Of a DNA stretch of 64,000 nt, positions 1-36,758 are shown piece by piece. A program made the translations under genes and the position numbers. The notes beneath the pieces were generated by a model that did not search any database, was not told the DNA's origin, and was given only the letters and a program-made list of their open reading frames with translations. Source of the DNA: Azolla caroliniana (Eukaryota; Plantae; Polypodiophyta); NCBI GenBank assembly GCA_043228905.1, contig JBHGNT010000014.1:14198001-14262000 (forward strand), given 5' to 3'. Position 1 is the first letter of the stretch. Each line of letters opens with the position of its first letter.

Positions 1-1040
1 GCTCCGAACCGGTGGCAACAACGCAAGATGAAAGTGGCCAAGCGTCCTACTACGGGGTGTTTCTCAGAAGTTGAGGACACCGGTACACAGAGAAGCAGCG
101 ATGCACGATTTGGCCGGGCAAGGGCCAACGCCGCGTGCATGGGAAGTAACTAGAGTTCGGCACAGGTAGTGCCGAACACGGGAAGGGGATGTGCGGCACA
201 CAGAGGTGCCTGAGTGGGAATACACGCGTGAAGATGGGTTGCCGGTCTAGGTGATCTCACGTACAAGACCGGAGAGGGATCCTCCACACTGGTTCCGGAG
301 ACCTTGGCAGTTCGGTCGTCGTGGCAACGTAAGACCAAGGAGAAGGTAGGTGGCGGCGAGGGGACGAAGGCAATGGAGATCAACGCGGAACGACAATTGG
401 GACGACGCGAAGGTCGACGGAGGCCAAGCAGGCCATCACAAGTGCGGGTGTGGTCTTTGGACGGGGGGCACCGCATATCCGAAGGAACAAGAAGCGTGCA
501 TGCGGTCGAAAGAAGGGCCAACAGGGAGGCACGCGCATTACGGGATTACAGCGAATGACCTATCGACGGGTCGAACGAGCCTACGGAGAGGCAAGCATGG
601 AGAAGGAACTGGAGTTGATGGTTCGGACTGGCAAGACCAACACGGCAACCGCAATGCGGATTACAGAAGACCGGTTCCTCACCGGCTAGAATCTCCCACA
701 CTCTCCGAGCTTGGCACGTACTGGTGGACGTGCGGTTTGGTAGGGGCAGATGTCGGCGGCTTGGCAGCAAGCTGTTGTTGTAACCTAACCTACCTTGGTC
801 TGAGTCAAAGCCGAGGTTGTATCTTACTCTTGTAATTATATATATATATAAGGTTGCGCATACTCGTGTCTCTGTTGGAGTCGGGGCGTTTCTTCCCTTT
901 TGTTTCCTGTACATAAGAGGTGTGTGTGGAGTCGGTGATGCGTGCCTGCTCTCTCTCTCTCTCTCCCTCTCTCTTCCTCTCTCATGTTCAGTAGCTTCCG
1001 GTACGCGACCAGAATCGTTCTGGTTTGCGCTGCATCCGAT
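1..1040 (+). mobile_element. 3' end of a gypsy-lineage LTR element (internal tail, PPT, start of 3' LTR); right boundary uncertain
   Basis: Bases 713-750 (ggcacgtactggtggacgtgcggtttggtaggggcaga) align with the pre-PPT/PPT segments of the elements at 14400-21347 and 32021-37400. They are followed by TGTCGG at 751, then a TATA-rich and CT-rich LTR-like tract. No matching CCGACA end was found. Confidence 0.6.
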
Positions 1041-1050
1041 GCAGCTGGAA

Positions 1051-2720
1051 CTAGAGAGAAGTCGGCTTCTCGAACTCTTTTATGTGCTTTGCTTGCCTCT
1101 GTTCGCATTCGTGGGTACTATCCATTTGGTGTTTCTGGAGCTCGTAAAAAAACCGGATGCGCTCGTTTTCAGCTTCTTCGTATTTTTGCAAAAATTGACT
1201 CAACCGTACCTGTATTTCCACAAGTTCTTTGTTCAGTGATGCGATTTGCGCAGCCGCAATGTCCTGTATGGACGTAATAGACTCGGTCGCTTTTTTTTCG
1301 GTCTCCTTGAGCTCAACCGTCTGTCCTTGTAGCGCCTTCGTAACTTCAGCTTCCTTGTCCACGACTTGCTCCTTGCTTTTGATGGCCTTTGCTTGTGCAT
1401 GCTCGAAGCGTCCTTTCGCTTTTTTTGCAATGGCTTTGTGCTAGGTGATCTCCTCTTCGTCGGTTTGCACGACCGTAGTCACTAGAGCGACAAGGTGAGG
1501 CGACATGGTCTGATCGGCCATGTTGGTCCATTCGCACGCACCAGGCCGGTCCGTTTGTGGCCTGTTTGCGTCTGACCTTCCATAGTTTCAGCTCATCATC
1601 TAAAGTCGGCTCATTGTCTATTGCCCCCTCTACAACCTACTGTTCAACGTGTTCCTGGCCCATGCGGGCTGCGACAACTACTTGGAGATGAGCCAAAAAG
1701 TCAATGAGTTCGTATGAGGTGCCGTGTTGCAAAATTGCTCCGAACTCAAATGCCTCGCCTGGAAGATTGCGGAAAGTTAAGACTTCATCCTCCGAAAATC
1801 GTGATTGCTAGCCTTGCTCAAAAGGTCTTTTGGGATCCAACATGGTGGTTGTCACGATCGCGAGAGCTTCCTTCGGGATGGTGACCAATTGTTTGTTGGC
1901 ATTGGTCGTTCCATCTTTACTCTGCGTGGTGCTGCTAGTGTTGGTGCGGCGGCCTTTTGCTGTTGGATCAAGTTCAAGTGATGCTTGTTTTGTACGCTCC
2001 TGTTATCGTTCGGTCTCCACTAACCGTGGGGCCTCTAGAATAGACTTTGGTTGTTCGACCTGTTTAGCTGGTTTCGAGGGTGGTGTCGGGCGGGGTGAGG
2101 GTATTACCCGTGCCAACTTATCATGATTGCGTATAGTGATGTGTCCCCATCTTCGGTCCTTTGCTCATCTTGGGTTGTAGAGAGGGCCTGGGTATCGTCA
2201 TCTTACTATTCTTCATGCAACAACTCCAACGTACATTGTCGTTTAGCGTTGGGGGTTGGACTAGGGACTACCAATGTCTGTCATGGCGGTTGTTCTTGCG
2301 GAGGGTACAACATGGCAGTGTATTGTGGTAGCACGGGTAAAAATCGTTTCCCCGATTGAAAAGAAGCGATGGCCAATCCTACACCTTCCCTGGTGATGAT
2401 CCGAGATGAAATGGGCTAGGTTCCCAAAGAATTCATTTAGACATCCATGCGTGCAATGAGCTTTTCTCGAGAGTGAAAAGTCTCTGAAATGTTGTTCCAA
2501 AGATGTGTTAATGTGGCACGTCGATATCATGCTCACCTGTCCTCTACAGATCACGCGTTGCTCGAATCATGTTGTTGGATATAGTGTTAGGGTGGATCCT
2601 TATGGCGATGGCATGAGCTTCTCGGTGGGTAGGTGCATCCAAGACGTTGAGATATCCTGAGAGGCCATTTCTGGACATCCAGGTGCTGAGTTCTTTAGAG
2701 ACTTTGAGTGGCATGGTGAG
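1051..2720 (-). pseudogene. Degraded ORF with a coiled-coil C-terminal part, probably a retroelement accessory ORF
   Basis: Fragmented minus-strand ORFs (1051-1362 is E/K/Q-rich and heptad-like; 2261-2554) with stops and frameshifts, in TE context. No recognisable domain. Confidence 0.3.
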
Positions 2721-3162
2721 GGTTGGAGACTTAGGTAAATAGGGAGAAGGTTGTGGAGAAGGAGACCAAGAGAAAGCTTGGTTAGCGAGAGTAGGTTGAG
2801 AGCAGTTCTACGTAGAAGGAGTGAAAGCTTGAGACTTCATGCAAGTGTGGCGGCTCTGGCTATTGGTGATGTTTTTGTGTGGGTGCCTCGGTTCTCGAGA
2901 CCTACCCTTGTGCCCTAGATTCACCATCTGGCCTGCCATGCTGATAGTTAAGGGCCACGCGTCATGTGATCAGTTTGCACTTGCTTTTCTCGAACATGGT
3001 TTGCAATGTAATCGATGCGTGATGCCATCGTGAGCCAGACTGGTAATTCGTTGTTCTACGAGTTCGAGCAATTGGACCAGACCCTAGTGTTCGGATTCTG
3101 ATTCCGGTAATCGTTTGACTTTTTGTATTGTAAGATAGGTACCTGGAATTCAATGGGCATTA

Positions 3163-3576
3163 TGTTGAGCGCAAGCTCAACTGGAGCCGGATCGGCTGAA
3201 TAAGCCTGAGCTAGCAAGTGAGACGGATCGGTAAGCTGTGAGCAACCAAACCGGCAAGCAACAAAGCTGATGAGTTGGATAGCCGATTAGCCGGATCCAA
3301 TCAATAACCATAAGCCTAGTATTACTGTAGACTACTAGGCAATTATAGTCTCGTAGTAAATGTCAGAGGCTCGTGTGAGCATTGAAGTACGCGGTACTTC
3401 TGTTAGTCCCACGAGGACTTGTATAAATAATGCTATTGAGCATAGTTGTAGATACAGAGTAATTATATCGTTTTTGGAATATAGCTTTTGCGTTCTGCTC
3501 TCTTTGTCTCTCCTGCGTACTCTCTGTATTCCCTACTTTCTCTATTCTCTAACGTTTCCAAAAGTAATCGTTTACA
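3163..3576 (+). repeat. 5' LTR of copia A (414 bp)
   Basis: TG..CA ends; homologous to 40353-40770 and 45498-45898. Confidence 0.95.
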
Positions 3577-3588
3577 TGGTATCAGAGC
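3577..3588 (+). promoter_or_regulatory. Primer binding site, tRNA-iMet
   Basis: TGGTATCAGAGC directly after the LTR. Confidence 0.95.
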
Positions 3589-5723
3589 GCGAGGGTTGAG
3601 AACCTCCTCTGCAACCAACAAACGCCTGAAAGCAAACCCTAATAGGTTGTAAAACAGCAGACAGGGAAGTGATGGATAGAGGGATGGCTAGCTCGCTCCC
3701 TGTGGAGAAACTCGACAGATCCAACTATGCATCTTGGTCGTATAAGATGCACCAGTACCTACTTGGGCATGGCTACTGGAGTTTCGTCAAAGGAGCCAAC
3801 GAAACAACACCTGATGCGACACATAAGGACTTCCCAGTGTGGGAACAATCGGCAAGCAGAGTGATGTATTGCTTCGCATCCAATGTCGGAGACCAGCTGC
3901 TGAGCCACATCCGAGACGCCAAGACGCCGAAGGAGGCTTGGGGGAACCTGAAGAAGGTTTTTGACACAAGCACTACAGCCCGGAAGCTGCAACTCCGACA
4001 AGAGTTGAGCGATGTATAACAGAAGGACATGTCAGTGGCGGATTACACGGCCTAGATCAAAGAGATCTGTGACTCGCTTGCTTCTATCAACGTTACCATA
4101 GAGGAAGACGAGATGGTACAGGTCTGTCTTGGGGGCCAAGCATCTAACTTCAGAGCGCTCCGAACGGCAGTGTGTACAAGGGAGAATACGCCGTCATTTT
4201 TCGACTTACATTCGATGCTCCTTGTAGGGGAGAAACACGCTGGTGCGTCAACTAGCTCACCCACTGACAACCGGATGTTGTACACGGAGGCAAATCGGTC
4301 CCGTGGGCATGTTGGACGAGCCGGGTCAGCACGCAATGGAGGCGGCCGACAAGAGCAAGAATGAAGGCACAAAGAATGTGTCGACAACAGTTCCGGGACT
4401 TCCACTAGCAGGGGGAGTTATGGCAACACCGGAAGACGACAAGAGAAGTCTGCAACGGAATGCTGGTACTGTGGCAAAAAGGGCCACAGAGAAAGCGAGT
4501 GCTGGAGAAAACGCGCCGATATGGACAAATCCGGATCCGGCAAGGCCGGCAAGGATGGCCGGAAAACCTCGCATTACGCGAAGGGATCGGGAAGATCCAA
4601 GAACGGTAACGGGCCAGCCTTGGTGATGAAGCACGAGGCGAACTCGATGAAGAACACCACTTCCAAATCACATGACGAGCCACAAAGAGTGGTTCTCCTT
4701 TTTGGAAAAACCGGATCAACCAGGAGTAGTCGAAACCGGAGACGACCCTCCTCACCCAATCGTGCACGTCGAAAAAGTTCCTTTGAGCCACGTCGGACAG
4801 AAGGGGAAGCTGATGAACGTATTACACGTTCCGACAATCACGACGAACCTGGTGTCGGTCGGACAGATCGTCGACCAGGGGATGCAGGTGCGGTTTACGC
4901 ACCTCGGGTGCTTCATCGAGGAAGAGGGCCATATTATTGCGCAAGGGCGCAGAGACGGGAGGATGTTTATTCTCGACACCAATGACGTTGGCACCTCTCT
5001 GTTTGCAAAAGGACAGAAGGCCGAATCGGACATCAACCTATGGCACAAGCGGATAGGCCACGTCAATTATCGGAGGCTTCAAGAGCTGCAAACGAAACAA
5101 GTTGTTTTCGGTTTGCCAAAGTTCAGCGGCCGGAAGGCGCAAGTATGTGAAGCCTGCCAACTCGGGAAGCAACACCGGCTTCCATTCCCTACCGAACGTA
5201 ACCGGAGCCGTAACAAGCTCGACCTAATCCATTCGGATGTGTGGGGACGGGCACAAAATGTTAGTCTTGGTGGGAGTCGATATTTCATCTCCTTCATCAA
5301 TGACTATACGCGACACACATGGATCTACCTCATTGAGCGGAAGAGTGAAGTCTTTGAGTGTTTCCGAAGTCTCCAAAGCATGGTGGAATGGGAATCGGAG
5401 AGGAAGATCAAATGCCTGCGGTTGGATGGCGGGAAAGAATACTTTTCCGGCCAATTCAACAGTTATTTGCAGCAAACGGGAATTCGGCGAGAGTTCAGTT
5501 GCAGATACACACCGCAACAGAACGGTGTCGTGAAGTACGAAAGCTTCACATTAAAAGTCTACAGTCAGATAAATACGTAACTAAAATAACATTTGATAAT
5601 GTTTTATATATAAAGATAATATTAACAACACATATGATAATATTATATATATGTAAAGAAAAATACTATATATATATATATATATATAGATAGATAAATA
5701 TATTATATTACACGAACAAGAGA

Positions 5724-5777
5724 GGACTTGAACCAATAACCCCACCCTATGACTTTCAAATCTTACCGTTTACTCTA
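5724..5777 (-). promoter_or_regulatory. tRNA-type Pol III internal promoter (A/B box) cassette 1 in solo LTR
   Basis: Minus strand: TAGAGTAAACGGT (5777-5765), 30 nt, GGTTCAAGTCC (5734-5724). Confidence 0.6.
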
Positions 5778-5859
5778 TACTAATAATATATATAAAATAA
5801 AGGATTTGCTTCATGATATAAAAATGACGTTACATGTTGTAAATTCAATAATGTTTGAG

Positions 5860-5913
5860 AGACTTGAACCCACAACCTCATATACCAAAGTCAACACACC
5901 TACCATTAGGCTA
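5860..5913 (-). promoter_or_regulatory. tRNA-type Pol III internal promoter (A/B box) cassette 2 in solo LTR
   Basis: Minus strand: TAGCCTAATGGT (5913-5902), 31 nt, GGTTCAAGTCT (5870-5860). Confidence 0.65.
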
Positions 5914-14152: not shown

Positions 14153-15092
14153 GGAGTGCTCACCGGATGAAGAGACATATTCGTAAATATGTTTCTGAGA
14201 GTCCATCGAGGCTACATTTGTAAATAACCGAAAAGTCATATTAGTATAAATATGACTTAGGGCAAACTTTTAGTTTGTTGTTGTCATTCTTGTTGGTGCA
14301 AGAAGGAGAGAGCGCGTAACTGTGTACAAAGAGAGAGAGAGAGAAAGAGGTCGTTGCCTCTGTTGTAACCGCCGCCTGTGGTGAGGATCGTGAGCACGAT
14401 GTCGAGGTATTCCTCGCAGATGCGTGGAATGAGGCGGGACCTCGGGGGTCCTGTACCGAAGAGCAAGAGAGAAAGGAGAAGAGACCCACTACGTGCGAGA
14501 GTAGATTCACAGGGACACGGCCCTGCGACACAAAGAAGCGAGTGGGATAGCGACACAGAGAGACACGAATGTATGTATGTATTAACAAAGACAAACAACC
14601 AAAACACGAAGTCGGTTACAACCGAACAGGCCGGCGAATAGATGTTGGTACCTGTTCGTAAACGCACAGAGATGAAGGAGTAGGTTGGAGGTGCTGCCGG
14701 AAGCACTCTGGCATTCCTCAGAGCAGCGCGAGCCTCCCGAAACCTGCACAGAAGGAAGCTATGGAGTTTGCGAACCAGAGAGAGAGAAGCCTTCGCACCC
14801 AAACCGACAGCACTTCGTCCTCGACTCTCCGCGATCCCTTTCCCCTCCTCGTCTCACTCCTTTTATAGGCAAGGAAGGAGTCGTTTCCCCTTTACTTCCT
14901 ACCTACCGAATCTGCCCGCCTAGGATCTCCTATGTACAACATAAGGCGCACGTGCATGAAGAGCCGGTTCCTACGCTCCGGTGCACCGATTCCGCTTGTG
15001 GACGGTTTTCTTCACGACATCCGCCCCCACCTAACCGCGCATCCACCGGCATGCGCCAAATTGAGTTGGGACGGAGAAAACCGGTCCAGCCT

Positions 15093-18000
15093 TTATTCCC
15101 CACTCGTCGGTTCTTCTTCGGTTTCGGATCGTCCGTCGTCCCGGTCCAGGTTATCCGGATCCGGCTCGTCATCGTGACGCTTCTTGAACGTTTTGATCCG
15201 CTTCCCAACTACCGGTACCGCCATTCTCGTGCCGTCGAGTTCCGCCAGATGGTACGTCCCGTTGTCGTTGGCGCTTTGTACCACGTAAGGCCCGAACCAC
15301 CTTCTTGCAAACTTCCGTGTCGCTCGGTGCTGGTTGTCGAGGCTGCTGTCGTAGACTAGCACCCAATCGCCTTCCTCGATCTTCTTCGGTCGGAGCCGGT
15401 GCGTCCGGTCGAACCGGGCTTTGTTCCTCGTCCTGGCCACCCGAAGCTTTTCCGCAGCCTGCTCCACGTCCTCCGGTCTCCGCTCGAGCTATCGTATGCA
15501 CGCCGTCAACAGTTCCTCCCGGCTCATCTCGTCTCTCCAGTCCACGGTTGCCCGTGAGGAGATCGTATGTTCGATTGGCATGATCGGCTTCTGCCCAAAC
15601 ATGAGCTCTGCCGACATGAATCCAGTTACCGAATTGTGCGTAGTCCGGTCAGCCCACAACGCGTAAGGCAGTAGCCGCGGCCAGTTCCCGACTTGACCTC
15701 CGCATGCCCGAACTAACGCCTTGACAATCGGTCCGTGTCCACGCTCCACCTTTCCATTCGCCTCCGGATTGTACGCAGTGGTAAGCGAGAGCTTGACTCC
15801 TAGCCGGTCGAACAGCTCTTCGGCTTCTTCGGCGTCCAACTCCCCGCGATCAGCCACGATCTTCCCGACGCACCCGTACCGGCATATCACGTCCTCGATC
15901 AGGAACCGACATACGGCTGCGGTCGTTTTGTTCTGAAGGGCTCGGCCTTCTACCTGGTTCGTCAGATCTTCCCGGGCCAGGACTAGATACCGCATCTGTC
16001 CTACTCCCATCGGCATCGTCACCAGATCTACCATCCATTTGAAGTGGATGGTCGGAGGGTACGTAGGGTGAAGCTCGTCCCGATGTCGGACTAGGGAGTG
16101 CATCTGACAGCTCTCGCAAGTTGTCACGAACCGATGCACGTCCCGGTACAGTCCCGGCCACCAGTACTTCCCCTTTATCTTCTCGAACGTAGCCCACGTT
16201 CCACGGTGTCCAGCCCAAGGTCTGTCGTGGTAGGCCGTCAGCAGCTCCTCCTGTTCTTCCTTCATCGCCACCACCCGGAGCGGGACGCCGTTCCTCTTCT
16301 TTGGGTGCTTCCATAAATGTCCGTCCCGGAGGAAGAATCGGTATGCTTTCTTCCGGATCCGGTTAGCCTCGTCCCTCGTCCATGACGCATCCGGCGTCAT
16401 TGTCCTCAGAAACCCACCGATCTGCAGCCACTCGCCGTCGTACTTGCTCTCGTCGAACCCATTAAGTGCCGGAGTGCTCGCCCCATCGGTCGTCACGTAC
16501 GCCGCCTCGAAGAAGTCCACGCCGATTTCTTCGTCCTCCGAAACCATGCCGCCCTCGTCATCAAACCTCGCCCTCGAAAGCATGTCGGCCATGGCGTTGT
16601 CCTTTCCGGAAATGTGTCGTATCTCCGGGTCCAGGGACTTGATGTACGCTATCCACCTGAGCATCGCCAGGTCCGGTGTCGCACATCCGGAAACCATGCC
16701 GAGAATCGGCAAGCAATCCGTCTCGATAATCACTTCTGTCCCGATAAGGTAGTCTTTGTCCGCCTTTACCGCCGAAACGATACCCCAAAGTTCGCGTTTA
16801 ACCTGGGCGTACCCTCGCTGTCGCTCACTGAGGACCTTAGTGCCGAATCGGATCGGGAACCGGGTGCCGTCCTCATCTTCTTGGTTGACGACCCATCCGA
16901 TCCCGGTCGGGCTCGTATCCACTGATATGTATACCGGGGTACCCTTCTCGTAGACAGCCTTCCGGAGCGCCGGTGCTGCCGCAAGAGCTTCCTTCAGCTT
17001 CCGGACCGACTCCGTGTGCTCGTCTCGCCACTCGAATCTTTGCCCCTTCTTCAGCAACCCGTATAGTGGCTCCGCAAGGTGGGCGTAATGCGGGATCCAT
17101 ATGTGGTAGAACGCGCATGCCCCCAGGAACCTCCGAACTTCCGTAACCGAGCTACAGTCGGTCTTCATCGCGGAGATGGCTTCTACCTTTGCCGGAGACG
17201 GCTTCCGGCCATATGGTCCACATAGGTGCCCGACCACCAGGATTTCTGATTGCCCGAAGGCCGATTTCTCCCCGGAGAAGGTGAGCCTCGCATCCTCTAG
17301 CCTATGTAGCACCTTCTCGCAGTCGTCGATGTGTGTTGCTACGAATCGCCGGCATCCGTCCGGCCCGAGTGTCTCGTCCTTCTCTTCCACCGGGCACCCC
17401 TTGATAGGGATGTCGTCTAGAAACAGCATGGTGATGTCCGGGATGCAATCCCTCAGTACTTTGTTCATTGCATTCAGCATGTGGGCCACCGAGTTGGTCC
17501 CTCCTTGTGGCAGGGTACACATTCGCACTAGGCCGAGGGAAGTTCGCATCGTCGTAATGTCTCTGCTCTCCACGGCTAGCTGGAACTGGTCGTACCCCGA
17601 GTACAGATCACCGACCGAGTACATCAACCTTCCGGCGAAGGCCTCCGCGAACTCGTCTATGGTCGGTCCGATTCCTGCGTTCCGGATGGTCACTCTGTTG
17701 ACCGGCTGCAGGTCCTGAATGAAGCGCAATGTTCCGTTTTTCTTTGGTACAGTAAACCATCGGTTCGAGTATGGCGCGCTCGACTATTCGAGAATACCCA
17801 TATCGACTTTCTGCCTCAATAGCTCCATCAACTTCGGGATGTGAGCTCTCGGTACTGGAATCGGCTTGAGATTCCACGGTACATGCGGTACTATGAATAT
17901 CACCATCGGCTCCACGATCATCGGGTCTACGCACCCGATCTCTTCCGGTGAGAATGCGAAGGCTTTCCCGTGCCTTCCGACCATTCTCCGAAACCGGTCT

Positions 18001-20683
18001 TCCTCCGCCGGCAGTAGGAACCCGCCCCCACCGATTTTGAGCTCCCGGAGCGTTCCGTCGGTGAAGGTGTGTCCTATGCAGGCCGGATCTCGTAAACTGG
18101 GGTCCGACGCCACCCCTCTGATTCGGGACTCGCTGCCCTCCGGCAAGGGTGCCGCGACTGGCCTTACCTTCTGGTCCACAGTCTTGTACCTCGTGCTAAC
18201 TCGGGTCGTCCGATCCAGCCCGAGCCCCCGACTGAAGTTCGCGATGACTTCGTACATCTCTTCGGAACATACCGGTATCGTCCGGTCTTCGTTAAGGTCT
18301 TCTCCGGCTACCTTCCTCAACATTCCCAAGGTTTCGTCGAAGGAGACCGCCTCCACGGCTCCGCTGATTTCCTCGTCCGGGCCGAGAACTCCGCACGCTC
18401 GAAGTCGCACTTCCGCCCTTGTCTTTTCTCGGCCGACGATGCCGACTATCATACACCCTCCATTGTCGGAGAAGCAAAATCCCCTACCTATCGTACAGTC
18501 GTGGGGACTTTCCCAAGTGTCCGGACTGTCTCGGCCCCACGCCTTAGCAGCCCTCTCTAAAAATCCTCCCTGTTCTCGCCACCGAGGGATTCGCGGTTTC
18601 GCTCGTGGTTCGGTCGCACCGTCAGAAATTGGACCGAATGGCGCCCGTCCTGGCTTTTGACCCTCGCATAGGCCGAACCGTTGTCCAGCACCTTGGTCTC
18701 CATTCGCGCCGCCGTGATGTATGGTTCCCCTAATATGACCGGGTGCGAGGACGTCTCCTATACGAAGAAGTGTTGGTCAACCTCGACGTCGCCGATCTTG
18801 ACTCGCACGTTCGGGCAGGCCCCATGCAGTTCCTCGGTGGCGCACGTCGCCGCCCGTATCTTCCACCCGTGCTTGGTGTTGATCGGCCACTTCCCCTTCT
18901 TATAGAAGTCCATGGACATCAGGTTTATTTCCGAACCGTGGTCCACCAATGCCACCACCGGTTCCTGAACATCTCTGATCTTTACCGGGGTCTCCGTGGT
19001 CGCTCGGGCCCAGTGTGGCCTCGAATAGTGGCTCTCCGCCCACTCGTCTTCCATCGCCATGTCGTCGATGTGTGTTGTCCGCACCTCCACCGGTCTTTCC
19101 GGTTCCGTCTCCGTCGACAGCCTCTTCCGTTTCACCAGGTCCACAATGGAGTCGTGGAACTCCTTCTTGGCGATCCCTAGCACCTCTCGCAATGACAACT
19201 CCACATTGCTGTCAAGGATCCGTTCTTCTAGGACCTTTCGTAGGTTTGTAGTCCTTTCTATTTCCGTCCCCAGTCGGTATCCGCCCTTCCTGGGGTTATC
19301 TTGCGGGCTGGACCCACCGGCATCGTTCCGTCGTTGCCCGAATCGGGTCTCGTACCGTTGTGAGGGCCCATCCACTCCGGTTTTCCCCACCCGTTTTTCT
19401 TCAACCAGAGCCTCGTAGTTCCGGCAGGCGGCTTCTACAAAGCCCGTCTTCTCCTCGACCGGATCGCTCCACCCGGTTATTTCCCGGACCCGTCTCTCAG
19501 TGCGGTCCATTTCATCTTTCCTTAGCCGTGCGCCGGCAAGACCTTCCAGCATTGCCGACCAGAATCCGTCTTTGCCCTCCTTTCGGGCCTCGCTGCCCCC
19601 GACCCGAATGTTGGCCGACGCCGAGTAGTGGATGGCCTCCACGTGTCGAGCCGCTGCCTCTTCCATCAGTCTCTCCATTCCTCCTCGCCCGTCGTTTCGG
19701 TTCAGGGCCCTCCTGGTGTCGCCGGCGTGCACCCGGCCATCCCACAGGTACACCACCCGGTTCCTCAACGCCTCTGCAAAATCGCCGCAGTCCTTCCGAA
19801 TGTGGCCGACCTCGTCGCACCACATGCACTTGTTCCCCGCTGCCGGCCGTCGGTCACGAGCCGGTTCGCCGCCTTCCCTTCGAGTCTGGGCGATCTGGAG
19901 ATCCTTTATCGCCCGCGTCAACTCCTCCAGCGCTGCTCCTCCGGACGAGCCATTGACCATGCCGGTCGAAGCCGGACCGGTTTCGAGCCATTCCCGGGTT
20001 TCTTCCCTTCGCACTTGCGGCGCCGGTTCAAGCCTCCTTGCTGTGACAGAGCCCGCACCGGCCGCCCCGTTGTCAGCCCATTCTCGCCGTTTATCGAAAC
20101 GGCCATAGACTCTCTTAACCGCAGCCCAGTCGGTCGTCAACCCGTCTTTGGTTTCCAGCAAGGGGCCGACTTGATCCCGGTCCCGCTCGTCCACCGACTT
20201 GACGAACAGTAGGACCCGGCTCGTATCCAGAACGGTTCAGTCAAGCGTCGAAAGGCGCGCAAAGCGTTCTTCGAACTCCCGGAGGAGTGTCGTCGCATTT
20301 CTTCCGTTGCCGGGGGACTCCACCCATTCCATGAAGTCCCGTTTCGAAAGCCGGAGCGCGTCGTCCAGCCCGTATTTTTCTAGGAGTCGGCCTTCGAACT
20401 CCTCCCAGGTACGGCTCTCCGCCCGCACCTCGAGCACCTCCGCATGGATGCTCGGCATCGCCACTCAAGGAAACCCGGCAAGACGCCTCTCTTCCGGAAT
20501 GTCCCGCATCAGCATTTCTGCCCCGTAGGACGCCAAATACTTCGTGGCATCCTTTCCGCTGAACCGGCCGATCGTACCGACGACCGCCTCAATGGCTCTG
20601 TCGAGGGCACCGGAGCCCTCGCGTGCGCTCAATATCCGATCCACGGCCGAAGCCATGGCCTCCGCAAGATCCGACCCTTTCAT
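15093..20683 (-). pseudogene. Gypsy gag-pol pseudogene
   Basis: gag (GRFSGKDATKYL; Zn knuckle CMWCDEVGHIRKDC), protease ALVDHGSEINLM, RT (DLYSGYDQ, LPQGGTNS, FLDDIPIKG), RNase H (DTSPTGIG, ETDCLP), integrase (H-H-C-C, ADRGE, NGKVERGH, RWFGPY). Several premature stops. Confidence 0.94.
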
Positions 20684-20705
20684 CTTCTGCTCTTCTGCCG
20701 CCTCC

Positions 20706-20723
20706 TTCACGTCGGGTTCATCA
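20706..20723 (-). promoter_or_regulatory. Primer binding site, tRNA-Trp
   Basis: TGATGAACCCGACGTGAA, a 17/18 match to the complement of the plant tRNA-Trp 3' end (TTCACGTCGGGTTCACCA), 4 nt from the LTR. Confidence 0.85.
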
Positions 20724-22683
20724 AAGATGTCGAGGTATTCCTCGCGGATGCGTGGAATGAGGCGGGACCTCGGGGGTCCTGTACCGAAGAGCAAGAGAGA
20801 AAGGAGAAGAGACCCACTACGTGCGAGAGTAGATTCACAGGGACACGGCCCTTCGACACAAAAAAGCGAGTGGGACAGCAACACAGAGAGACACGAATGT
20901 ATGTATGTATTAACAAAGACAAACAACCAAAACACGAAGTCGGTTACAACCGAACAGGCCGGCGAACAGATGCCGGTACCTGTTCGTAAACGCACAGAGA
21001 TGAAGGAGTAGGTTGGAGGTGCTGCCGGAAGCACTCGGGCATTCCTCAGAGCAGCGCGAGCCTCCCGAAACCTGCACAGAAGGAAGCTATGGAGTTTGCG
21101 AACCAGAGAGAGAGAAGCTTTCGCACCCAAACCGATAGCAGTTCGTCCTCGACTCTCCGCAATCCCTTTCCCCTCCTCGTCTCCCTCCTTTTATAGGCAA
21201 GGAAGGAGCCGTTTCCCCTTTACTTCCTACCTACCGAATCTACCCGCCTAGGATCTCCTATGTACAACATAAGGCGCACGTGCATGAAGAGCCGGTTCCT
21301 ACGCTCCAGTGCACCGATTCCGCTTGTGGATGGTTTTCTTCATGACAACGAGGTCGTTGCCTCCGTGAACTCACTGTTGTACATTCTAACATAGTGATAG
21401 TTTGCAGCTTGTGGGCTGCCGTGGTTTTCCCTTAGTTTGGGTTTTCCACGTAAACATCCTGCGTACTCGTCTCTTCTTCGTGTCGTTCATTATTTCCCGT
21501 TTTCTGTGTATGATTCTAAACTCGGTTGTGGCCGAGCGTTGCGTATAGGGAGCGTGAAGTTCTTGTCATTGTATCAAAATCTGGGTTTTCCGAAAGGGCC
21601 GAGAACGGTGAGACTTCCGGAGAACTTGGAGGGGTAGCAATATCAGGACTGATATGTGACTGTGAGTCTAGGATTACTAATGGTGAGATTGGCGATTTCG
21701 GGGACGAATGCAGTGTGAGCACAGAATCGGCTGTCTCCTCGGCAGGCTCGGTGCGGCAAGATGATGGCTGAGAGCAAGTGCTTCTATTGGGCGTTGTACT
21801 GGCGATTGGGATTACCACCACGTGAGTTCGTTGTGCTACACAACGTGAACCGGGCATGCCAAATTGTGTTTCCTTCCTCTCCGAAGGCGACACCTTCAAT
21901 TCCTAACCGGAAGTGGACCAAAGGATTGTGGTACGTGGTGGTCAGATTGCTTTTACGAACGGGATGACATCATACAGATTATGTAAGAGTAAACTGCGAC
22001 TTATGCATACACGATAGCGAGAGATAGGTTACTTAACAACTATTAAAAGCGAACAATAACACAAAATAGACCCAACACTATTTAGATTACGAAATGAGTA
22101 ATGATTACAGTTACACGGCTATCTGCCGAAATGTATTAGATACACTGTTGTATGATTAATTATGTAATAACCTCAGACTTCGCTCCTATATAGCCCTTTT
22201 CCTTCCATCTGATGCTTCTTTATATAGATGTTCCTTGGTGCACTCCTCCTTCCACATTTTCGGCTGTGTTTATTTTGGTTTCTTCTGATTGCTTTCGGTT
22301 GTTTACTTACTGCTACCTAATTCCTATTACGATTATCATATGTTACTATTTTGGCCCATGGACAACACCTAGCATGCCCGTGGGACAGTGCCTTGGAACG
22401 TTGAACCCATCAAATCGAAATTTCCCATTCGTAAAGAGGTTGTTAAAATTAATTCAGTATATATTATAGTTAATCCTGGGTCAAAATGTGGAGGATTCCC
22501 TCTGTGTTTGATTGTCACATCCTTTGGAATGGTCGCGGGGTCGGGTCGTGGTGCGCTGGTGTTTTCGACCAAAATGTTTGTTGCAAGCTCCTTTTCGTCG
22601 TTGCTCAGGAATATCGGGGAGGTTGGGGTGTGGTTGTCTAGCTTCATCGGTCGTTCGTTGATTGCGGCAGGTTTTACATAGGA

Positions 22684-24180: not shown

Positions 24181-24235
24181 TACCTCGTTGGGTCGCATAC
24201 CTTTCCGGAACACTGGTTGTAGTATACAATATTGT

Positions 24236-24683
24236 GGAGCCCTGGAAGCTACAGAAGCTAGAGATAGAACAATGTTTGGATATCCAAGAAAATGAACATT
24301 TAGACAATATTGTATACTACAACCAATGTGAGGACTTGGCAATATTATTGGAAGTTGGAGATAATTTTGCGGTGCTCAAAACTCCTCAAAATGAAGATTT
24401 TGAAGACTACTACATTGTGGTGTGCAAGCAAGGAAATACAATATTGGAAGAAGTCCTGAGGGATGGCTGGGGCAACATGTGAAATGTTGGTGAGTCTATC
24501 GTGTATGGCAACTACTATGCAAAGTTGCCACAATGCAAGAACACATATGCATTGTTAAAAGATGCACCCACCGCAATAATCTATGTTGATGCCATTATCG
24601 CAATCAAGTTCAAAATGACTCAAGCAAAGCACAAGGTTAAGGGATACAACACTGTCTACAAAGTCCCCCAAAGGGGTACATGA
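24236..24683 (+). pseudogene. 3' fragment of a probable DNA-transposon ORF
   Basis: Two in-frame ORF pieces separated by one stop (GDNFAV..YYIVVC..DGWG..GNYY..KFKM..HKVKG..VYK), 5'-truncated at the junction with copia C. Family assignment is from recall only. Confidence 0.4.
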
Positions 24684-29835: not shown

Positions 29836-30296
29836 GAAACCTCTCCTTGTCTCGGGTTGTGATGAGCCCCAAGTTTTCATCATCCACATGTCTAGGTCTT
29901 CATAAGTGTCAGATCGTGCACGAAAGAAATAACCCCATCCAAATTTTGTACCTCGAAGGATGTTTGTGTGAATCTTCTTATCGTGAGTTGTTGAAAACTT
30001 CGACCTCCCTCTGGTGGGGGTCATCTTACTTTCTTTGATGGGGGTCCTTTTTCTTTCCTTGCACGGTGTGTTGACATTTTCTTTGACCATTTTCTTCTTC
30101 GTGGGTGTCTTCCTTGTCATTAGAATCATCTCTCTCTTCTTTGCCTCACATGCACAACAATAGTAAATAACAGTAAATCATGCACAACAATAGTGAACAA
30201 TTGTAAAGAATTAGGTAAGTAATTAAGCAAGGGTTAATTAGTACCTAATTATGTGATTAGTTGATAAGCGAAAGATTAAGTGATATGTGTGTGAGA

Positions 30297-30344
<48 letters not shown>

Positions 30345-32133
30345 CACTTATGAACAACACAAGATGGGGGATGAGTAACTATATTAAATTAGCAGTATCA
30401 TTATCATCAAATACAAAAATACCATCAATGAGGTATATATAGATCTCATGTGCAAGGGTGCACATGTGTGAGGAGAATATAGGTACAACCGTGTAAGTTC
30501 TATATTAAATGACCTTGGGAGTGGAAGATCTAGAATATCCTACTTAAGTACAAGGTCCTATTTAAGTCGTTATAGTCAACACTTCTAACTAGATTCTATC
30601 TAGGTAACTACGAAGTTACATGGTTGACTAACTAACTAAACTAAGTTGAGCTTGATCTCTCAACACGCCCCCTCAAGCTCAAGTGTGAGGCGCCCGACAT
30701 CCGCTTTGGCTGCTTTTGTCGGCTTCGTGTGCTTTCGTCCAGCCTTCGACTTTCTTCGCCGTGGCAATCTCGGTTGCTCCCCCTCAAGACGGTGACGAAG
30801 GCTTGTAGTGTGTCGGCGAAGGTCCACTACTTCCACCAATCGTGGGTTATGAGCCATTTCGGTGCAGCTCTTGGGCTCTTGTTCTACTGCTACCTTCATC
30901 GTGATGGCATAATGATGGACCATGTACTTGTTGTAGTCGTGCTAAGTGATGGGGTTCTTAGCTCTAGATGAGCGTCGAAGTTTATCGCTCATCAATGTGA
31001 GTGCCTTCTTTACTCCCGATATCCGCATGATGGGTACACCGAACTCGTTGTCTAGTGAGGGAGTTGATCCATCCGAATCATTGTCGTCGGGGCGGTCAAC
31101 TTCATATTCGGGCATCTTACCTTTGCCTTTGTCCAAGTTCGTACTTGGCCGCGACGTGCTTGGGTCGTGTGGGGGCTCTTGTGGCCCACTAGGCTTTGAC
31201 GTAATCGGACTTTCTTCGAACATGTGTTCGAAGTGATCTCCATCTTCTACCTCTTGTTCGGTGGATTCCGGGTCAAGCGGAGTCGGAGTCGAAGTTGTCT
31301 CTGGTGCGTACCAAGATGCGGACTCGTCGAAGACTACGTCTCGACTTACCCAAACCGAGCGGGTAGAATGGTTGTAGCACTTGTATGCCTTCTTCTCAGA
31401 CGAGTATCCTATGAGGATACATTCCTTCGACTTCGCATTGGGCTTCTGCTGTTGTTCATTCAGGATGCGTACATTTGCAATGCTTCTGAACACCTTGAGG
31501 TGCGACAGGATCGGCTTCCTTTTGACGAGGAGCGCGTATGGAGTTAGCTCATGCACTCCATTAGTGGTGCATCGATTCATGAGATAGACGGTCGTGGATG
31601 TTGCTTCGGCCCAATAGAAATTTGGCATGTGCTTCTCATGCATCATGGCGTGTGCTACCTTGAGTATTTGCCGTTTCTTCCTTTCGGCTACTCCATTTTG
31701 TTGGGGTGTGTGTCGGCACGAGAATTCTCTCCGAATGCCTTCACTTTGGAGATAGGAGGTGAATTCGTCAGAGAAGTACTCCTTGCTGCCTCCATCCGAT
31801 TGTAGGCATCGAATGTGCCGACCAGTTTCTTTTTCGACTTGGCCCTTGAGCTTTTGGAAGTGGGAGAACACTTCGCTCTTCTTCTTCATCGGGCAGATCC
31901 ACGCGTAGCGCAAGTGGTCGTCGATAAAGGTGACATAGAATTGGCATTCGCCGATCGTCGGCATTTGAGCCGATCCCCATACATCCGAGTGTATGATGTC
32001 GAGGAGGCCTTTGCTCGCGTTGTCGTAGTGTATTTCGTACACTACGTGAAAAAAGTAAAAATAATATAACCGATTTAATTACATATAAATAAATAAAATA
32101 ATATATGAAGATATTTATCACGTGCATAGGGCA

Positions 32134-32187
32134 GGATTCGAACCCTGTACCTCCACGTAGCCAAACCTCAACTTTACCATTATGCTA
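32134..32187 (-). promoter_or_regulatory. tRNA-type Pol III A/B-box cassette in LTR (repeated at 34467-34520 and 36800-36853)
   Basis: Minus strand: TAGCATAATGGT (32187-32176), 31 nt, GGTTCGAATCC (32144-32134) inside a CAGG..CCTG T-arm-like stem. Downstream T runs at 32098-32095, 32061-32057 and 32054-32049. Confidence 0.72.
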
Positions 32188-32738
32188 CCTTATCTTTAGT
32201 GTTCTATAAATAGATTTAATAACTATAACTACTTTATTTGCACCTACCTTTATTAAAAGGTAAATCGTGCATTTTTAGAGTGCGTGAATATTTTATAGAA
32301 AACTAAAAAAGTGACTCATGCACATCTAGCGTGCATGAGCACTATATTTAGCAAATAAAAGCAAGGATTAAGAAAGCATCACATGCACATTTAGTGTGCA
32401 TGAACATATTAGAAAAAGCATGTAGCTATGTTTAGTCTCTCCCATCACTATATAAGGATGGGGAGCACATTGTAGTTTTTGTTGATTATTTTTCTATAAT
32501 GATCAATCAATCTAAAATATTCGTGGGATTCACGAATTTGCTAAAATAATTCTCTCTTACTACCTAAATATTGACTAAATATACTAAACTCGTGGGATTC
32601 ACGAGATTCTTATCTTATAACTCTTTATACCTATTCTATACTAGCCTTATTTGTATTTTTCTTTTCTCCTAGTCCAAAACCCCGGTGGTTCCCACCCGAC
32701 TCACGCAAACGATCCGGAGCCGAAAGGCACGACACAGT

Positions 32739-32756
32739 TGGTGAACCCGACGTGAA
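32739..32756 (+). promoter_or_regulatory. Primer binding site, tRNA-Trp (second copy 35072-35089)
   Basis: TGGTGAACCCGACGTGAA, an 18/18 complement of the plant tRNA-Trp 3' end, 4 nt after the LTR. Confidence 0.9.
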
Positions 32757-32772
32757 GGCGGGTGGCAAGGAG

Positions 32773-34425
32773 ATGGAGAATCAACAAGAGGCGATGAACA
32801 TGATGATGATGATGTTCGAGAGAATGCTACAAGAACAACGCGAGATGTCGGAGATCACGACAGTAGTACAACGGCTCGTGCAACAGAACGGGCAATTCGA
32901 TGGAAAGGACGTGTCACGCTATCTACGTGACTACAAAATGGAGATGTTGCGATATGGTATCTCAGAAAGATTGCAAGTGTTATCTTTCAACCGGGTGGCT
33001 ACGGATGAGCTTCAAGAGAGAATCCACGAGATACGACAACAAAGCCCGATGTGGGAGTCCTTTGAAGAAGCTATACGAGACACATATGACTATCTAAGAC
33101 CGAAGCGGACGAGGACATGGTCCACGAACGGCGGTCAACAGTGGGTGAAAAGCGGCCACCGACTACCACCGAAGGAGAGCTTGATGCGGAAGGGTTCGGA
33201 GATGCATGAAAAGTCGCAAGTCGACATTGAAGGGGAGCTTAAAACCGAACCAAAGTCGAGGCCAACAAAGGACGAGGAGGAGGAAGATCGAGGACGAAAG
33301 GGTATCCCCACACCGGTTCCAGAGACTTCGGCGGCTGTGCCCGTGCACCAACGTGAGACCGGAGAGACGGAATGTGTCGGTGGAAAAGTGGAGGACCGGA
33401 AGGGCAACGAGGAAGACAAAGTAAATGAGCACGAACGAAGGGATTCCTTCACCATTGTTTCGGAGACTTCGGTACTGGAGCCCGGGTGTCGACATAACAC
33501 CGAAGATAAGGAAAGTGGCGGCAACGAAACGAAGGTCGAAGCCGATGCATACGAAGGAGAGATAGCCAAGGAGAACATGGCTATGGGTGAAACAACGGAA
33601 GATGATAATACCGAGGATTCCTACCCACTAATTCTAGAGACTTCGGCGGTTGTGTCCGAGAACCAACGTGAGACCGGAGAGACGGGAGGTGGCAACAAGG
33701 AAGGTAAAGTCGGAAGCCGGTTCGGATGGAAGATGATCCGTCTGAAATTCCGATGTAAACAAAAGCATGACAACGCGAAGGTCGGGTCTACGATGGGAGA
33801 AGCATGTAATACGGAGCACGCACTACGGCACCAAAAGAAGCACGTGCTACGGCGTAAAGAGAAGCACACGCTACGGCGCAAAAAGAAGCACGCGCTACGG
33901 TGCAAAAATAAGCATGCACTACGGGGTAATACGGCGCATGCACTACGATGGAATACGAAGCATGCGCTACGGCCTAATACGACGCATGCGCAACATCGAG
34001 AAATAAAGCATGCATTAAAGCCGCACAAGGACCTAACAGCGAGCGCGTATTTGGAGGTCAACATCGACGCGTGGGTAGAACCTACGGAAGACAAGCGCGG
34101 AGTGGAGAGAGACAACACACCGAGATGCTCAAGAGTACCACAAGGGACCATGACAACCACTCATGGCAATGCAAAGAATGAACAAAGAATATGGTGGATC
34201 GGATGGCGACAATGGTTCGGGTGGAAAGAATGGGTCTACTCAAAATGGAGAGACAAAGTTGACATAGTGGGACAAACGGAGGATGAAGGGGAGACAACGA
34301 GCATCGGCAACTTCGGCACATACCGGAGGATGTGCGGGTTCGGAGGGGGCGAGTGTCGTAGTGTATTTCGTACACTACGTGAAAAAAGTAAAAATAATAT
34401 AACCGATTTAATTACATATAAATAA
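32773..34425 (+). CDS. Gag-derived protein of about 550 aa with an acidic middle region and KHALR repeats (copy 1)
   Basis: Uninterrupted ORF. The N-terminus (GQFDGKDVSRYLRDYKMEML..LQERIHEIRQQSPMWESFEEAI) aligns with the gag at ~20300-20600 (GRFSGKDATKYLASYGAEML..IHAEVLEVRAESRTWEEFEGRL). First ATG at 32773; the stop lies inside the next LTR. Confidence 0.75.
   Translation: MENQQEAMNMMMMMFERMLQEQREMSEITTVVQRLVQQNGQFDGKDVSRYLRDYKMEMLRYGISERLQVLSFNRVATDELQERIHEIRQQSPMWESFEEAIRDTYDYLRPKRTRTWSTNGGQQWVKSGHRLPPKESLMRKGSEMHEKSQVDIEGELKTEPKSRPTKDEEEEDRGRKGIPTPVPETSAAVPVHQRETGETECVGGKVEDRKGNEEDKVNEHERRDSFTIVSETSVLEPGCRHNTEDKESGGNETKVEADAYEGEIAKENMAMGETTEDDNTEDSYPLILETSAVVSENQRETGETGGGNKEGKVGSRFGWKMIRLKFRCKQKHDNAKVGSTMGEACNTEHALRHQKKHVLRRKEKHTLRRKKKHALRCKNKHALRGNTAHALRWNTKHALRPNTTHAQHREIKHALKPHKDLTASAYLEVNIDAWVEPTEDKRGVERDNTPRCSRVPQGTMTTTHGNAKNEQRIWWIGWRQWFGWKEWVYSKWRDKVDIVGQTEDEGETTSIGNFGTYRRMCGFGGGECRSVFRTLREKSKNNITDLITYK
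33814..34029 (+). repeat. 24-bp coding minisatellite, about 9 units (KHALRxxx); second copy 36147-36362
   Basis: Conserved core aagca(c/t)gc(a/g)ctacgg plus 9 variable nt per unit. Confidence 0.88.
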
Positions 34426-35105
34426 ATAAAATAATATATGAAGATATTTATCACGTGCATAGGGCAGGATTCGAACCCTGTACCTCCACGTAGCCAAACC
34501 TCAACTTTACCATTATGCTACCTTATCTTTAGTGTTCTATAAATAGATTTAATAACTATAACTACTTTATTTGCACCTACCTTTATTAAAAGGTAAATCG
34601 TGCATTTTTAGAGTGCGTGAATATTTTATAGAAAACTAAAAAAGTGACTCATGCACATCTAGCGTGCATGAGCACTATATTTAGCAAATAAAAGCAAGGA
34701 TTAAGAAAGCATCACATGCACATTTAGTGTGCATGAACATATTAGAAAAAGCATGTAGCTATGTTTAGTCTCTCCCATCACTATATAAGGATGGGGAGCA
34801 CATTGTAGTTTTTGTTGATTATTTTTCTATAATGATCAATCAATCTAAAATATTCGTGGGATTCACGAATTTGCTAAAATAATTCTCTCTTACTACCTAA
34901 ATATTGACTAAATATACTAAACTCGTGGGATTCACGAGATTCTTATCTTATAACTCTTTATACCTATTCTATACTAGCCTTATTTGTATTTTTCTTTTCT
35001 CCTAGTCCAAAACCCCGGTGGTTCCCACCCGACTCACGCAAACGATCCGGAGCCGAAAGGCACGACACAGTTGGTGAACCCGACGTGAAGGCGGGTGGCA
35101 AGGAG

Positions 35106-36758
35106 ATGGAGAATCAACAAGAGGCGATGAACATGATGATGATGATGTTCGAGAGAATGCTACAAGAACAACGCGAGATGTCGGAGATCACGACAGTAGT
35201 ACAACGGCTCGTGCAACAGAACGGGCAATTCGATGGAAAGGACGTGTCACGCTATCTACGTGACTACAAAATGGAGATGTTGCGATATGGTATCTCAGAA
35301 AGATTGCAAGTGTTATCTTTCAACCGGGTGGCTACGGATGAGCTTCAAGAGAGAATCCACGAGATACGACAACAAAGCCCGATGTGGGAGTCCTTTGAAG
35401 AAGCTATACGAGACACATATGACTATCTAAGACCGAAGCGGACGAGGACATGGTCCACGAACGGCGGTCAACAGTGGGTGAAAAGCGGCCACCGACTACC
35501 ACCGAAGGAGAGCTTGATGCGGAAGGGTTCGGAGATGCATGAAAAGTCGCAAGTCGACATTGAAGGGGAGCTTAAAACCGAACCAAAGTCGAGGCCAACA
35601 AAGGACGAGGAGGAGGAAGATCGAGGACGAAAGGGTATCCCCACACCGGTTCCAGAGACTTCGGCGGCTGTGCCCGTGCACCAACGTGAGACCGGAGAGA
35701 CGGAATGTGTCGGTGGAAAAGTGGAGGACCGGAAGGGCAACGAGGAAGACAAAGTAAATGAGCACGAACGAAGGGATTCCTTCACCATTGTTTCGGAGAC
35801 TTCGGTACTGGAGCCCGGGTGTCGACATAACACCGAAGATAAGGAAAGTGGCGGCAACGAAACGAAGGTCGAAGCCGATGCATACGAAGGAGAGATAGCC
35901 AAGGAGAACATGGCTATGGGTGAAACAACGGAAGATGATAATACCGAGGATTCCTACCCACTAATTCTAGAGACTTCGGCGGTTGTGTCCGAGAACCAAC
36001 GTGAGACCGGAGAGACGGGAGGTGGCAACAAGGAAGGTAAAGTCGGAAGCCGGTTCGGATGGAAGATGATCCGTCTGAAATTCCGATGTAAACAAAAGCA
36101 TGACAACGCGAAGGTCGGGTCTACGATGGGAGAAGCATGTAATACGGAGCACGCACTACGGCACCAAAAGAAGCACGTGCTACGGCGTAAAGAGAAGCAC
36201 ACGCTACGGCGCAAAAAGAAGCACGCGCTACGGTGCAAAAATAAGCATGCACTACGGGGTAATACGGCGCATGCACTACGATGGAATACGAAGCATGCGC
36301 TACGGCCTAATACGACGCATGCGCAACATCGAGAAATAAAGCATGCATTAAAGCCGCACAAGGACCTAACAGCGAGCGCGTATTTGGAGGTCAACATCGA
36401 CGCGTGGGTAGAACCTACGGAAGACAAGCGCGGAGTGGAGAGAGACAACACACCGAGATGCTCAAGAGTACCACAAGGGACCATGACAACCACTCATGGC
36501 AATGCAAAGAATGAACAAAGAATATGGTGGATCGGATGGCGACAATGGTTCGGGTGGAAAGAATGGGTCTACTCAAAATGGAGAGACAAAGTTGACATAG
36601 TGGGACAAACGGAGGATGAAGGGGAGACAACGAGCATCGGCAACTTCGGCACATACCGGAGGATGTGCGGGTTCGGAGGGGGCGAGTGTCGTAGTGTATT
36701 TCGTACACTACGTGAAAAAAGTAAAAATAATATAACCGATTTAATTACATATAAATAA
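35106..36758 (+). CDS. Gag-derived protein (copy 2, translation identical to copy 1)
   Basis: Same ORF shifted by 2333 bp. Confidence 0.75.
   Translation: MENQQEAMNMMMMMFERMLQEQREMSEITTVVQRLVQQNGQFDGKDVSRYLRDYKMEMLRYGISERLQVLSFNRVATDELQERIHEIRQQSPMWESFEEAIRDTYDYLRPKRTRTWSTNGGQQWVKSGHRLPPKESLMRKGSEMHEKSQVDIEGELKTEPKSRPTKDEEEEDRGRKGIPTPVPETSAAVPVHQRETGETECVGGKVEDRKGNEEDKVNEHERRDSFTIVSETSVLEPGCRHNTEDKESGGNETKVEADAYEGEIAKENMAMGETTEDDNTEDSYPLILETSAVVSENQRETGETGGGNKEGKVGSRFGWKMIRLKFRCKQKHDNAKVGSTMGEACNTEHALRHQKKHVLRRKEKHTLRRKKKHALRCKNKHALRGNTAHALRWNTKHALRPNTTHAQHREIKHALKPHKDLTASAYLEVNIDAWVEPTEDKRGVERDNTPRCSRVPQGTMTTTHGNAKNEQRIWWIGWRQWFGWKEWVYSKWRDKVDIVGQTEDEGETTSIGNFGTYRRMCGFGGGECRSVFRTLREKSKNNITDLITYK

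Follow-up and report, generated by a model that had tools for sequence, protein, structure and literature searches.

Within a 64,000-nt stretch of Azolla caroliniana DNA (contig JBHGNT010000014.1, positions 14,198,001 to 14,262,000 of the forward strand; hereafter the window), three long terminal repeat (LTR) retrotransposons, designated E1, E2 and E3, carry a 20-nt hairpin just upstream of the polypurine tract (PPT). A reading made from the letters alone, referred to here as the sequence-only reading, had singled out this hairpin as a lineage-wide cis element that is also kept by non-autonomous members. Judged by comparative sequence evidence, the hairpin is indeed a real, selected, lineage-wide cis element: among 80 related loci selected by protein, the 69 that extend to the 3′ junction all have it; it is better conserved than integrase DNA; and changes in its stem are compensated on the integrase tree. 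Retention in non-autonomous members was borne out as well, by E3, probably by E1, and by a third unit in the related locus L002, although simple deletion derivatives would likewise have kept the hairpin.

All four copies of the hairpin in the window have exactly the positions (Table 1) and letters that had been given for them. Each is followed by GG and ends 17 nt (E1 and E2) or 18 nt (E3) before the TGTCG of the LTR. They represent three independent cases, the copies at 34316 and 36649 being units of one 100% identical tandem element. The accompanying claim that the elements are otherwise dissimilar is right for LTR DNA, where blastn gave nothing better than E 0.15 between any two of the LTRs. 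It fails for the interiors, since the open reading frame (ORF) of E3 has homology to E2 gag (30% over 123 aa, E 2.6e-12). Perfect 6-bp stems closing an 8-nt loop are by themselves frequent, with 49 matches in the window. The degenerate motif, allowing up to three mismatches, finds only four window sites versus 0.06 expected, a figure that speaks to specificity only, as the pattern was derived from these matches. Similarly, a covariance model that was partly built from the four hairpins scores them at 56 to 71 bits and everything else in the window at no more than 11 bits.

The wider sample consisted of metagenome loci picked by integrase only, the best 80 of 137 confirmed ones, and the hairpin was not used in their selection. 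Junctions were anchored by a G-run and a TG spaced 3 to 5 nt apart, again ignoring the hairpin, which yielded 66 junctions (three loci were re-anchored by a stricter rule). Perfect 6-bp stems were found in 49 of these, stems with one G-U pair in eight, stems with a mismatch in six, and a remodelled form in three. When the 66 loci were combined with the three window elements (E1 being placed one base off), 63/69 junctions had a stem of at least five Watson-Crick pairs whose end lay 17 or 18 nt upstream of the LTR, compared to 13 for the next best of 220 offsets. The covariance model, which spans 54 positions and 28 rows (25 of them from the loci, which match by construction), recovered 71 sites in 69/80 loci. 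Three of the 69 loci carry the motif in remodelled form; as for the 11 loci without a site, six end no more than 117 nt from the integrase match and five have lost the junction by deletion. Canonical sites score at least 36 bits and remodelled ones 30 to 39, as compared to a background of 11 bits. Two details of the window copies proved not to be universal: the GG after the stem is shared by 37/66 anchored relatives, and the loop RCYGGWGG by 47/66. Scans of viral contigs found nothing, and a protein search for read-through tails in named hosts added nothing; read-through signatures are seen in proteins P0015, P0018, P0048, P0121, P0122, and P0125. In contigs from four DNA runs, summed depth has its peak where the hairpin, the PPT and the start of the LTR lie, and 2 to 4 nt upstream of the stem many contigs diverge; among the 40 of 62 variants listed, one falls at position 15039 and none at its pairing partner, 15054.

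Among 28 representatives, sequence identity is 0.85 in the hairpin and 0.81 in the PPT spacer, as compared to 0.48 to 0.51 in the flanks and 0.67 in integrase DNA (14 of the representatives). Covariation was scored by parsimony on an integrase tree of 67 rows, with L026, L027 and L033 set to unknown, against a simple null of independent changes by branch length (20,000 simulations) rather than by R-scape. Both arms changed on the same branch seven times versus 0.6 to 1.05 expected, a number reached in 0/20,000 simulations, and six of the seven double changes restore a Watson-Crick pair (pair 3 twice, pair 2 twice, pairs 4 and 5 once each). The two compensated A-T/G-C switches noticed in the window are both among these events, and the covariation in a larger alignment that the sequence-only reading had set as its test holds. 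The pair-2 doubles of L010 and L018 were discounted, being CpG at both bases and located on end branches of decayed copies, and a third double at this pair, in L052, is non-compensatory. Once the CpG-prone pair 2 is left out, four doubles remain versus 0.22 expected (0/20,000 simulations), and the stem doubles on inner branches are compensatory in 3/3 cases. Covariation events are few because the sequence itself is strongly conserved. One-sided changes are mostly C>T or G>A and lie on end branches. Rather than in young copies, where frequent disruption had been named as the outcome that would count against a function, broken or wobble stems are concentrated in decayed ones: pol is free of lesions in 34/49 loci with a perfect stem versus 4/14 with an imperfect stem (Fisher p 0.011).

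These data also bear on the idea that the hairpin is an inherited coding remnant or a chance palindrome without a role of its own. The window elements are related, such that shared sequence is expected by descent, and the frames of E1 and E3 run through the hairpin in the same frame. However, pol stops before the hairpin in 51/64 scored loci and the rest read through in all three frames (5, 4 and 4); coding constraint is accordingly not supported and was rejected. With the drop in identity from hairpin to flanks, compensation far above the null and the enrichment of imperfect stems in decayed copies, this explanation is largely refuted, and we give it hardly any credence.

RNAalifold, unaided, predicts a fold of six base pairs, a bulged purine, two C-G pairs and a GGW triloop. 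In total, 97.8% of the alignment cells are paired in this fold, compared to 16 to 61% in slid controls (relatedness is not accounted for in the shuffle control). The bulge position has changed more often than any other column (11 changes); in L043 and L056 the bulge has moved by one base and both C-G pairs are kept, two cases that lie on long branches and may not be independent. The apical C-G pairs lack compensatory changes and thus stand as a prediction. The clade of L026, L027 and L033 has lost the loop sequence with pol intact and is predicted to form an extra lower stem (L026:8227-8274, L027:6200-6247, L033:6694-6742); the lesion-free L033 keeps a predicted stem with the same end position despite the loop loss. 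This clade offers a natural means of telling loop function from stem function.

A longer lower stem that would sequester the PPT looked attractive in single folds and was rejected as not being lineage-wide: across 32 sequences, a PPT-covering stem had a mean z of −0.29 versus shuffled flanks (p 0.27) and a median rank of 0.43 versus swapped flanks (p 0.54). Searching Rfam 15 gave 0 gathering-score matches in the window and none over the hairpin at E up to 10, and only chance-level matches in L068; a tRNA origin of the hairpin block was dropped for want of a tRNA match in Rfam. As a separate observation, TTG or CTG stands just 5′ of the stem in 49/66 junctions (e.g., 711-713 and 15059-15057) and in several folds pairs with the loop CCGG in an alternative predicted hairpin (L011, L055, L064, L036, L069), which could be a switch.

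The sequence-only reading had offered priming, packaging and dimerisation without choosing among them. With respect to priming, 13 or 14 nt separate the stem base from the G-run end in 67/69 junctions, with 4 nt and then the TG following, and the integrase-to-hairpin distance is variable, ranging from 59 to 326 nt (57 loci scored). In Ty3 reverse transcriptase (RT), the polymerase active site and that of RNase H lie ~13 bp apart, a value called preliminary in the review that gives it (PMC5371799), and polymerase-dependent RNase H cleavage is raised by pausing (PMC3185654; PMC4439019). From the 13- to 14-nt spacing, the Ty3 gap and this effect of pausing, we infer a stall of RT that puts RNase H at the G-run end. 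Our proposal, which falls a little short of an even call, is that the hairpin 5′ of the PPT folds in the element RNA and pauses RT, with the result that the plus-strand primer is cut at its 3′ end by RNase H. During minus-strand synthesis, RT would copy U3, then the PPT, and then reach the stem base; given a Ty3-like ~13-bp gap between active sites, the stalled enzyme would place RNase H at the G-run end, where the cut would fall, and the resulting primer would start DNA 4 nt before the LTR’s TG. Such a positional cue would matter more here, as the PPT spacer is only 74% purine. RT or nucleocapsid might gain an added contact from the conserved bulge and loop Gs. Being cis-acting, the hairpin would have to be kept by non-autonomous units for the RT of autonomous relatives to copy them. 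At the other end of the element, the overhang between LTR and primer-binding site (PBS) ranges from 1 to 7 nt, making a 4-nt overhang plausible for this integrase.

More tentatively, the hairpin might act as a structural ruler one polymerase-to-RNase H distance upstream of the G-run, such that the primer is cut by geometry and not by purine content. If true, pause-coupled PPT definition would have its first natural, lineage-wide example with covariation support in an LTR retroelement, and the hairpin would be the cis signal on which the non-autonomous parasites of the lineage depend.

Several points weigh against RT pausing at the hairpin. The ~13-bp spacing is borrowed from Ty3 RT and the cut at the G-run end is presumed; the hairpin abuts the PPT, whose length might by itself account for the fixed distance. 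The usual overhang is 2 nt, which would make the stem-to-cut distance 15 to 16 nt. At −7 to −9 kcal/mol the hairpin is of modest stability, windows of 100 nt do not surpass their shuffles in this respect (z 0.52, −0.22 and −1.60), and with 35 nt of flank the mean stem pairing probability falls below 0.5 in 10/32 sequences. Three pol-lesion-free loci (L039, L043, L051) have a stem mismatch, and the remodelled stem of L026/L027 is weak. In the sample, 77/80 loci come from one series of assemblies. The G-U (nine, pair 1) and C-A (four, pair 2) mispairs both occur at CpG sites, so that the test for the strand on which the stem acts is confounded by CpG decay. Finally, most stem and loop columns show 0 to 2 changes over a tree length of 11.5; such strong conservation of stem and loop sequence exceeds what a pause needs and suggests protein recognition.

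One form of protein recognition is binding by Gag or nucleocapsid for packaging or assembly of the replication complex, in which the 3′ placement would select full-length RNA and adjacency to the PPT would merely reflect the only non-coding spot. Such a role, a close rival of pausing although we consider it rather unlikely, would fit the sequence conservation of the loop Gs and apical C-G pairs, the CCHC knuckle in gag, and the retention of the hairpin in non-autonomous units. The loop letters GGAG/GGUG are moreover those of the nucleocapsid-binding HIV-1 Psi stem-loops SL3 (GGAG) and SL2 (GGUG), which likewise have short stems; these are tetraloops in the 5′ leader, whereas the present alignment is more in line with a triloop than with a GGAG tetraloop, and the element lies at the 3′ end. 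However, packaging does not require a spacing fixed to one base, the GGW loop is lost in the intact L033 and L026/L027 families, and no pairing of the hairpin with the 5′ leader exceeded shuffles in 16 loci (z −1.3 to 1.9).

Dimerisation by a kissing loop, in which CCGG in an open 8-nt loop would pair with the loop of a second RNA and then extend into a duplex, is the weakened member of the original trio, the palindrome being missing from 19/66 junctions including lesion-free families. While CCGG is found in the loop of 47/66 junctions, its losses are mostly CpG-type and on end branches, and predicted homodimers are stable (−21 to −28 kcal/mol), any hairpin yields a stable extended dimer in silico. 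In addition, the palindrome is just 4 nt long, it is missing in L043 and L056 with lesion-free pol and in the L033 clade, and a kissing loop would leave unaccounted for the conserved GG on the 3′ loop side, which is explained by the triloop fold. We regard a kissing loop as very improbable.

The element might also act as DNA, either through a minus-strand fold formed after RNase H degradation, which would steer plus-strand initiation, PPT re-use or strand displacement, or as a dyad site for a dimeric protein, with template switching between the arms making some of the matched changes. The minus-strand mirror hairpin is of similar energy (−4.3 and −5.8 versus −5.0 and −7.0 kcal/mol), the Ty3 PPT is re-used several times (PMC5371799), and the G-U versus A-C test that could speak against a DNA role suffers from the CpG decay described above. 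A dyad protein site, however, predicts neither same-branch double changes nor an asymmetric conserved loop; template switching alone would allow the stem to drift, yet the stem is more conserved than integrase; and the site lies outside the LTR, hence not in the 5′ promoter. A DNA role strikes us as improbable.

As for known systems, Sireviruses and about half of the classic Ty1/copia elements have a conserved, precisely placed stem-loop that borders the PPT and has been proposed as an RNase H guide (Bousios et al. 2010, PMC2829016). There, the inverted repeat has its left arm next to the PPT and its right arm within the LTR, so that the loop contains the PPT, and the arms average 19 to 28 bp, whereas the present hairpin belongs to Ty3/gypsy elements, has both arms upstream of the PPT and comprises 8 bp with a bulge and a triloop, and is thus not of the Sirevirus type; pairing with an LTR-side arm was not supported in a search extended 4 nt into the LTR. 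The HIV-1/SIV PPT and central PPT (cPPT) helices similarly place conserved RNA structure by an RNase H site and have been proposed to pause RT; this helix includes the PPT’s 3′ end and, according to its authors, would not explain a precise cut (PMC4439019), whereas the stem described here precedes the presumed cut by one active-site spacing of the Ty3 type. For Ty3, a member of the same superfamily, local geometry at or upstream of the junction has been suggested to position RT (PMC5371799). The 3′ signal of the bipartite Ty3 PBS is a tRNA-pairing segment in U3 (PMC5371799); the present hairpin showed no useful complementarity to the 18 tRNA bases readable from the PBS, to which this comparison was confined, and no tRNA turned up in the window. 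The Conserved Hairpin Site of fungal GalEa Copia elements is also clade-wide, more conserved than the LTRs and common to distant families, but it follows the 5′ LTR in place of a PBS (Donnart et al. 2017, PMC5445492), whereas the present hairpin precedes the PPT and a normal PBS is kept.

We found no description of a pre-PPT hairpin in Phygy elements, the lineage discussed below, in the open literature, including the excerpts of PMC6317226, PMC6911290, PMC7466625 and PMC11899658 (subscription papers being outside this scope). The hairpin is apparently undescribed, and of a kind already proposed elsewhere. The choice of the exact primer end by RNase H is an unsettled question, for which earlier proposals of RNA structure near the PPT, in Sireviruses and HIV, gave no clean geometric case. 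Given a 20-nt element with a fixed 13- to 14-nt spacing, natural compensatory variants and the remodelled L033, pausing can be tested with short RNAs and one enzyme.

Going by structural features, E1, E2 and E3 are related Phygy-type Ty3/gypsy retrotransposons with diverged LTRs. Phygy is a non-chromovirus Ty3/gypsy lineage with a tRNA-Trp PBS in 81% and a 4-bp NCGN target-site duplication (TSD) (Neumann et al. 2019, PMC6317226). An identical 18-nt PBS occurs in E3 (twice), in E2 (with one substitution) and in the 23/80 loci that extend to the 5′ end; calling it tRNA-Trp type follows the supplement of that paper and general background. The TSDs of E2 (TCGT) and E3 (GCGT) are both NCGN. By Pfam scan, the domain order of E2 is that of Ty3/gypsy (DUF4100 gag, RVT_1, RT_RNaseH, Integrase_H2C2, rve), and E2 and protein P0001 have a single RNase H and no chromodomain; a weak protease match is present in the gag-pro of a relative. 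There is no additional archaeal RNase H and no extra ORF, with pol ending within about 65 nt of the hairpin in nearly all loci. Thus, the present elements and Phygy (PMC6317226) are alike in their tRNA-Trp PBS, their NCGN TSD and a gag-pol that fills a compact interior without a chromodomain or extra ORF.

Differences exist as well. At 6950 bp, E2 is shorter than the published Phygy range of 7656 to 9968 bp because its LTRs are short; that range comes from one moss species, and size is rated a weak character in the same paper (PMC6317226). Phygy is called Physcomitrella-specific there, whereas the named organisms among the relatives of the pol protein are Riccia and Adiantum. The Phygy row of the supplement excerpt of PMC6317226 lists no non-autonomous tandem derivatives of the E3 kind and describes no pre-PPT hairpin. 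The 54-position model can locate Phygy-type 3′ ends, including those of non-autonomous members that protein-based classifiers miss.

Table 1. Positions of the hairpin-bearing elements and their parts in the window
Feature	Position	Strand	Remarks
E1 hairpin	714..733	+	56 bits in the covariance model; pair 5 is G-C, as in the L007/L012 family
E1 PPT spacer	734..750	+	17 nt; G-run ends 13 nt past the stem, 4 nt more to the LTR start at 751
E2 whole element	14398-21347	-	6950 bp, decayed full-length Ty3/gypsy
E2 3′ LTR	14398..15019	-	622 bp; 97% identity to 5′ LTR; TSD TCGT (NCGN)
E2 PPT spacer	15020..15036	-	17 nt; G-run ends 13 nt past the stem
E2 hairpin	15037..15056	-	71 bits in the covariance model; pair 3 is G-C, as in its own 16-member clade
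E2 gag-protease region-pol	15111..20700	-	DUF4100 gag, CCHC knuckle read from the translation; RT, RNase H, integrase
E2 PBS	20704..20721	-	tRNA-Trp type, one substitution; 4 nt past the 5′ LTR
E2 5′ LTR	20726..21347	-	622 bp; 97% identity to 3′ LTR
E3 whole tandem	32021-37400	+	LTR-interior-LTR-interior-LTR, non-autonomous; gag-derived frame
E3 first LTR	32021..32734	+	714 bp; TSD GCGT (NCGN) at 32017-32020 and 37401-37404
E3 unit 1 open frame, stop to stop	32575..34425	+	gag N-terminus and low-complexity tail, without pol; runs through the hairpin
E3 unit 1 PBS	32739..32756	+	tRNA-Trp type
E3 unit 1 hairpin	34316..34335	+	68 bits in the covariance model; most frequent form in the lineage
E3 unit 1 PPT spacer	34336..34353	+	18 nt; G-run ends 14 nt past the stem
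E3 middle LTR, common to both units	34354..35067	+	
E3 unit 2 PBS	35072..35089	+	tRNA-Trp type
E3 unit 2 hairpin	36649..36668	+	identical tandem copy of the unit 1 hairpin
E3 unit 2 PPT spacer	36669..36686	+	18 nt
E3 last LTR	36687..37400	+	

The pol of E2 ends in an SH3/GPY-type tail lacking a chromodomain, and its coding region is broken by premature stops. E1, a decayed element truncated by the window start such that its 5′ part lies outside, is probably non-autonomous; it resembles the non-autonomous L002 unit as well as the 3′ end of the L007/L012 family, and shares with E3 a 60-bp internal repeat (65% identity). The L002 locus (L002:150-12351) is a mixed tandem of a hairpin-PPT-LTR segment, an autonomous element, a shared LTR and a non-autonomous unit, the last with a 1098-aa frame, its own hairpin-PPT and a different LTR start; it is either real or a chimeric assembly.

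By sequence similarity, the E3 frame is derived from the autonomous L038/L040/L041 family; compared to the L040/L041 family, E3 has 76% identity in the LTR and 71% at the gag start. Between its two units, E3 shows 100% identity over 3047 bp, which reflects either a very recent duplication or an assembly artefact. Tandem LTR elements of this kind are frequent in plants (PMC11899658). Within the E3 frame, a 24-bp tandem repeat (33767-34037 and 36100-36370) encodes a basic repeat peptide. Related non-autonomous proteins gave 17 matches, and gag-only units thus form families with long open frames. A tRNA-like segment with an A-box and a B-box lies at 34456-34527 (-) and recurs in each E3 LTR (Rfam tRNA 14.2 bits, below threshold). 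A B-box-like motif occurs in the first 500 nt of 13/40 Phygy-type LTRs versus 1/40 pol controls, and tRNA-derived pieces may be a recurring part of such LTRs.

Outside the three elements, positions 56611-59790 (-) hold an intact gene for a 1059-aa PPR-E-DYW RNA-editing factor. This PPR-DYW gene indicates a land-plant origin of the window, in which Copia and Gypsy elements are densely packed.

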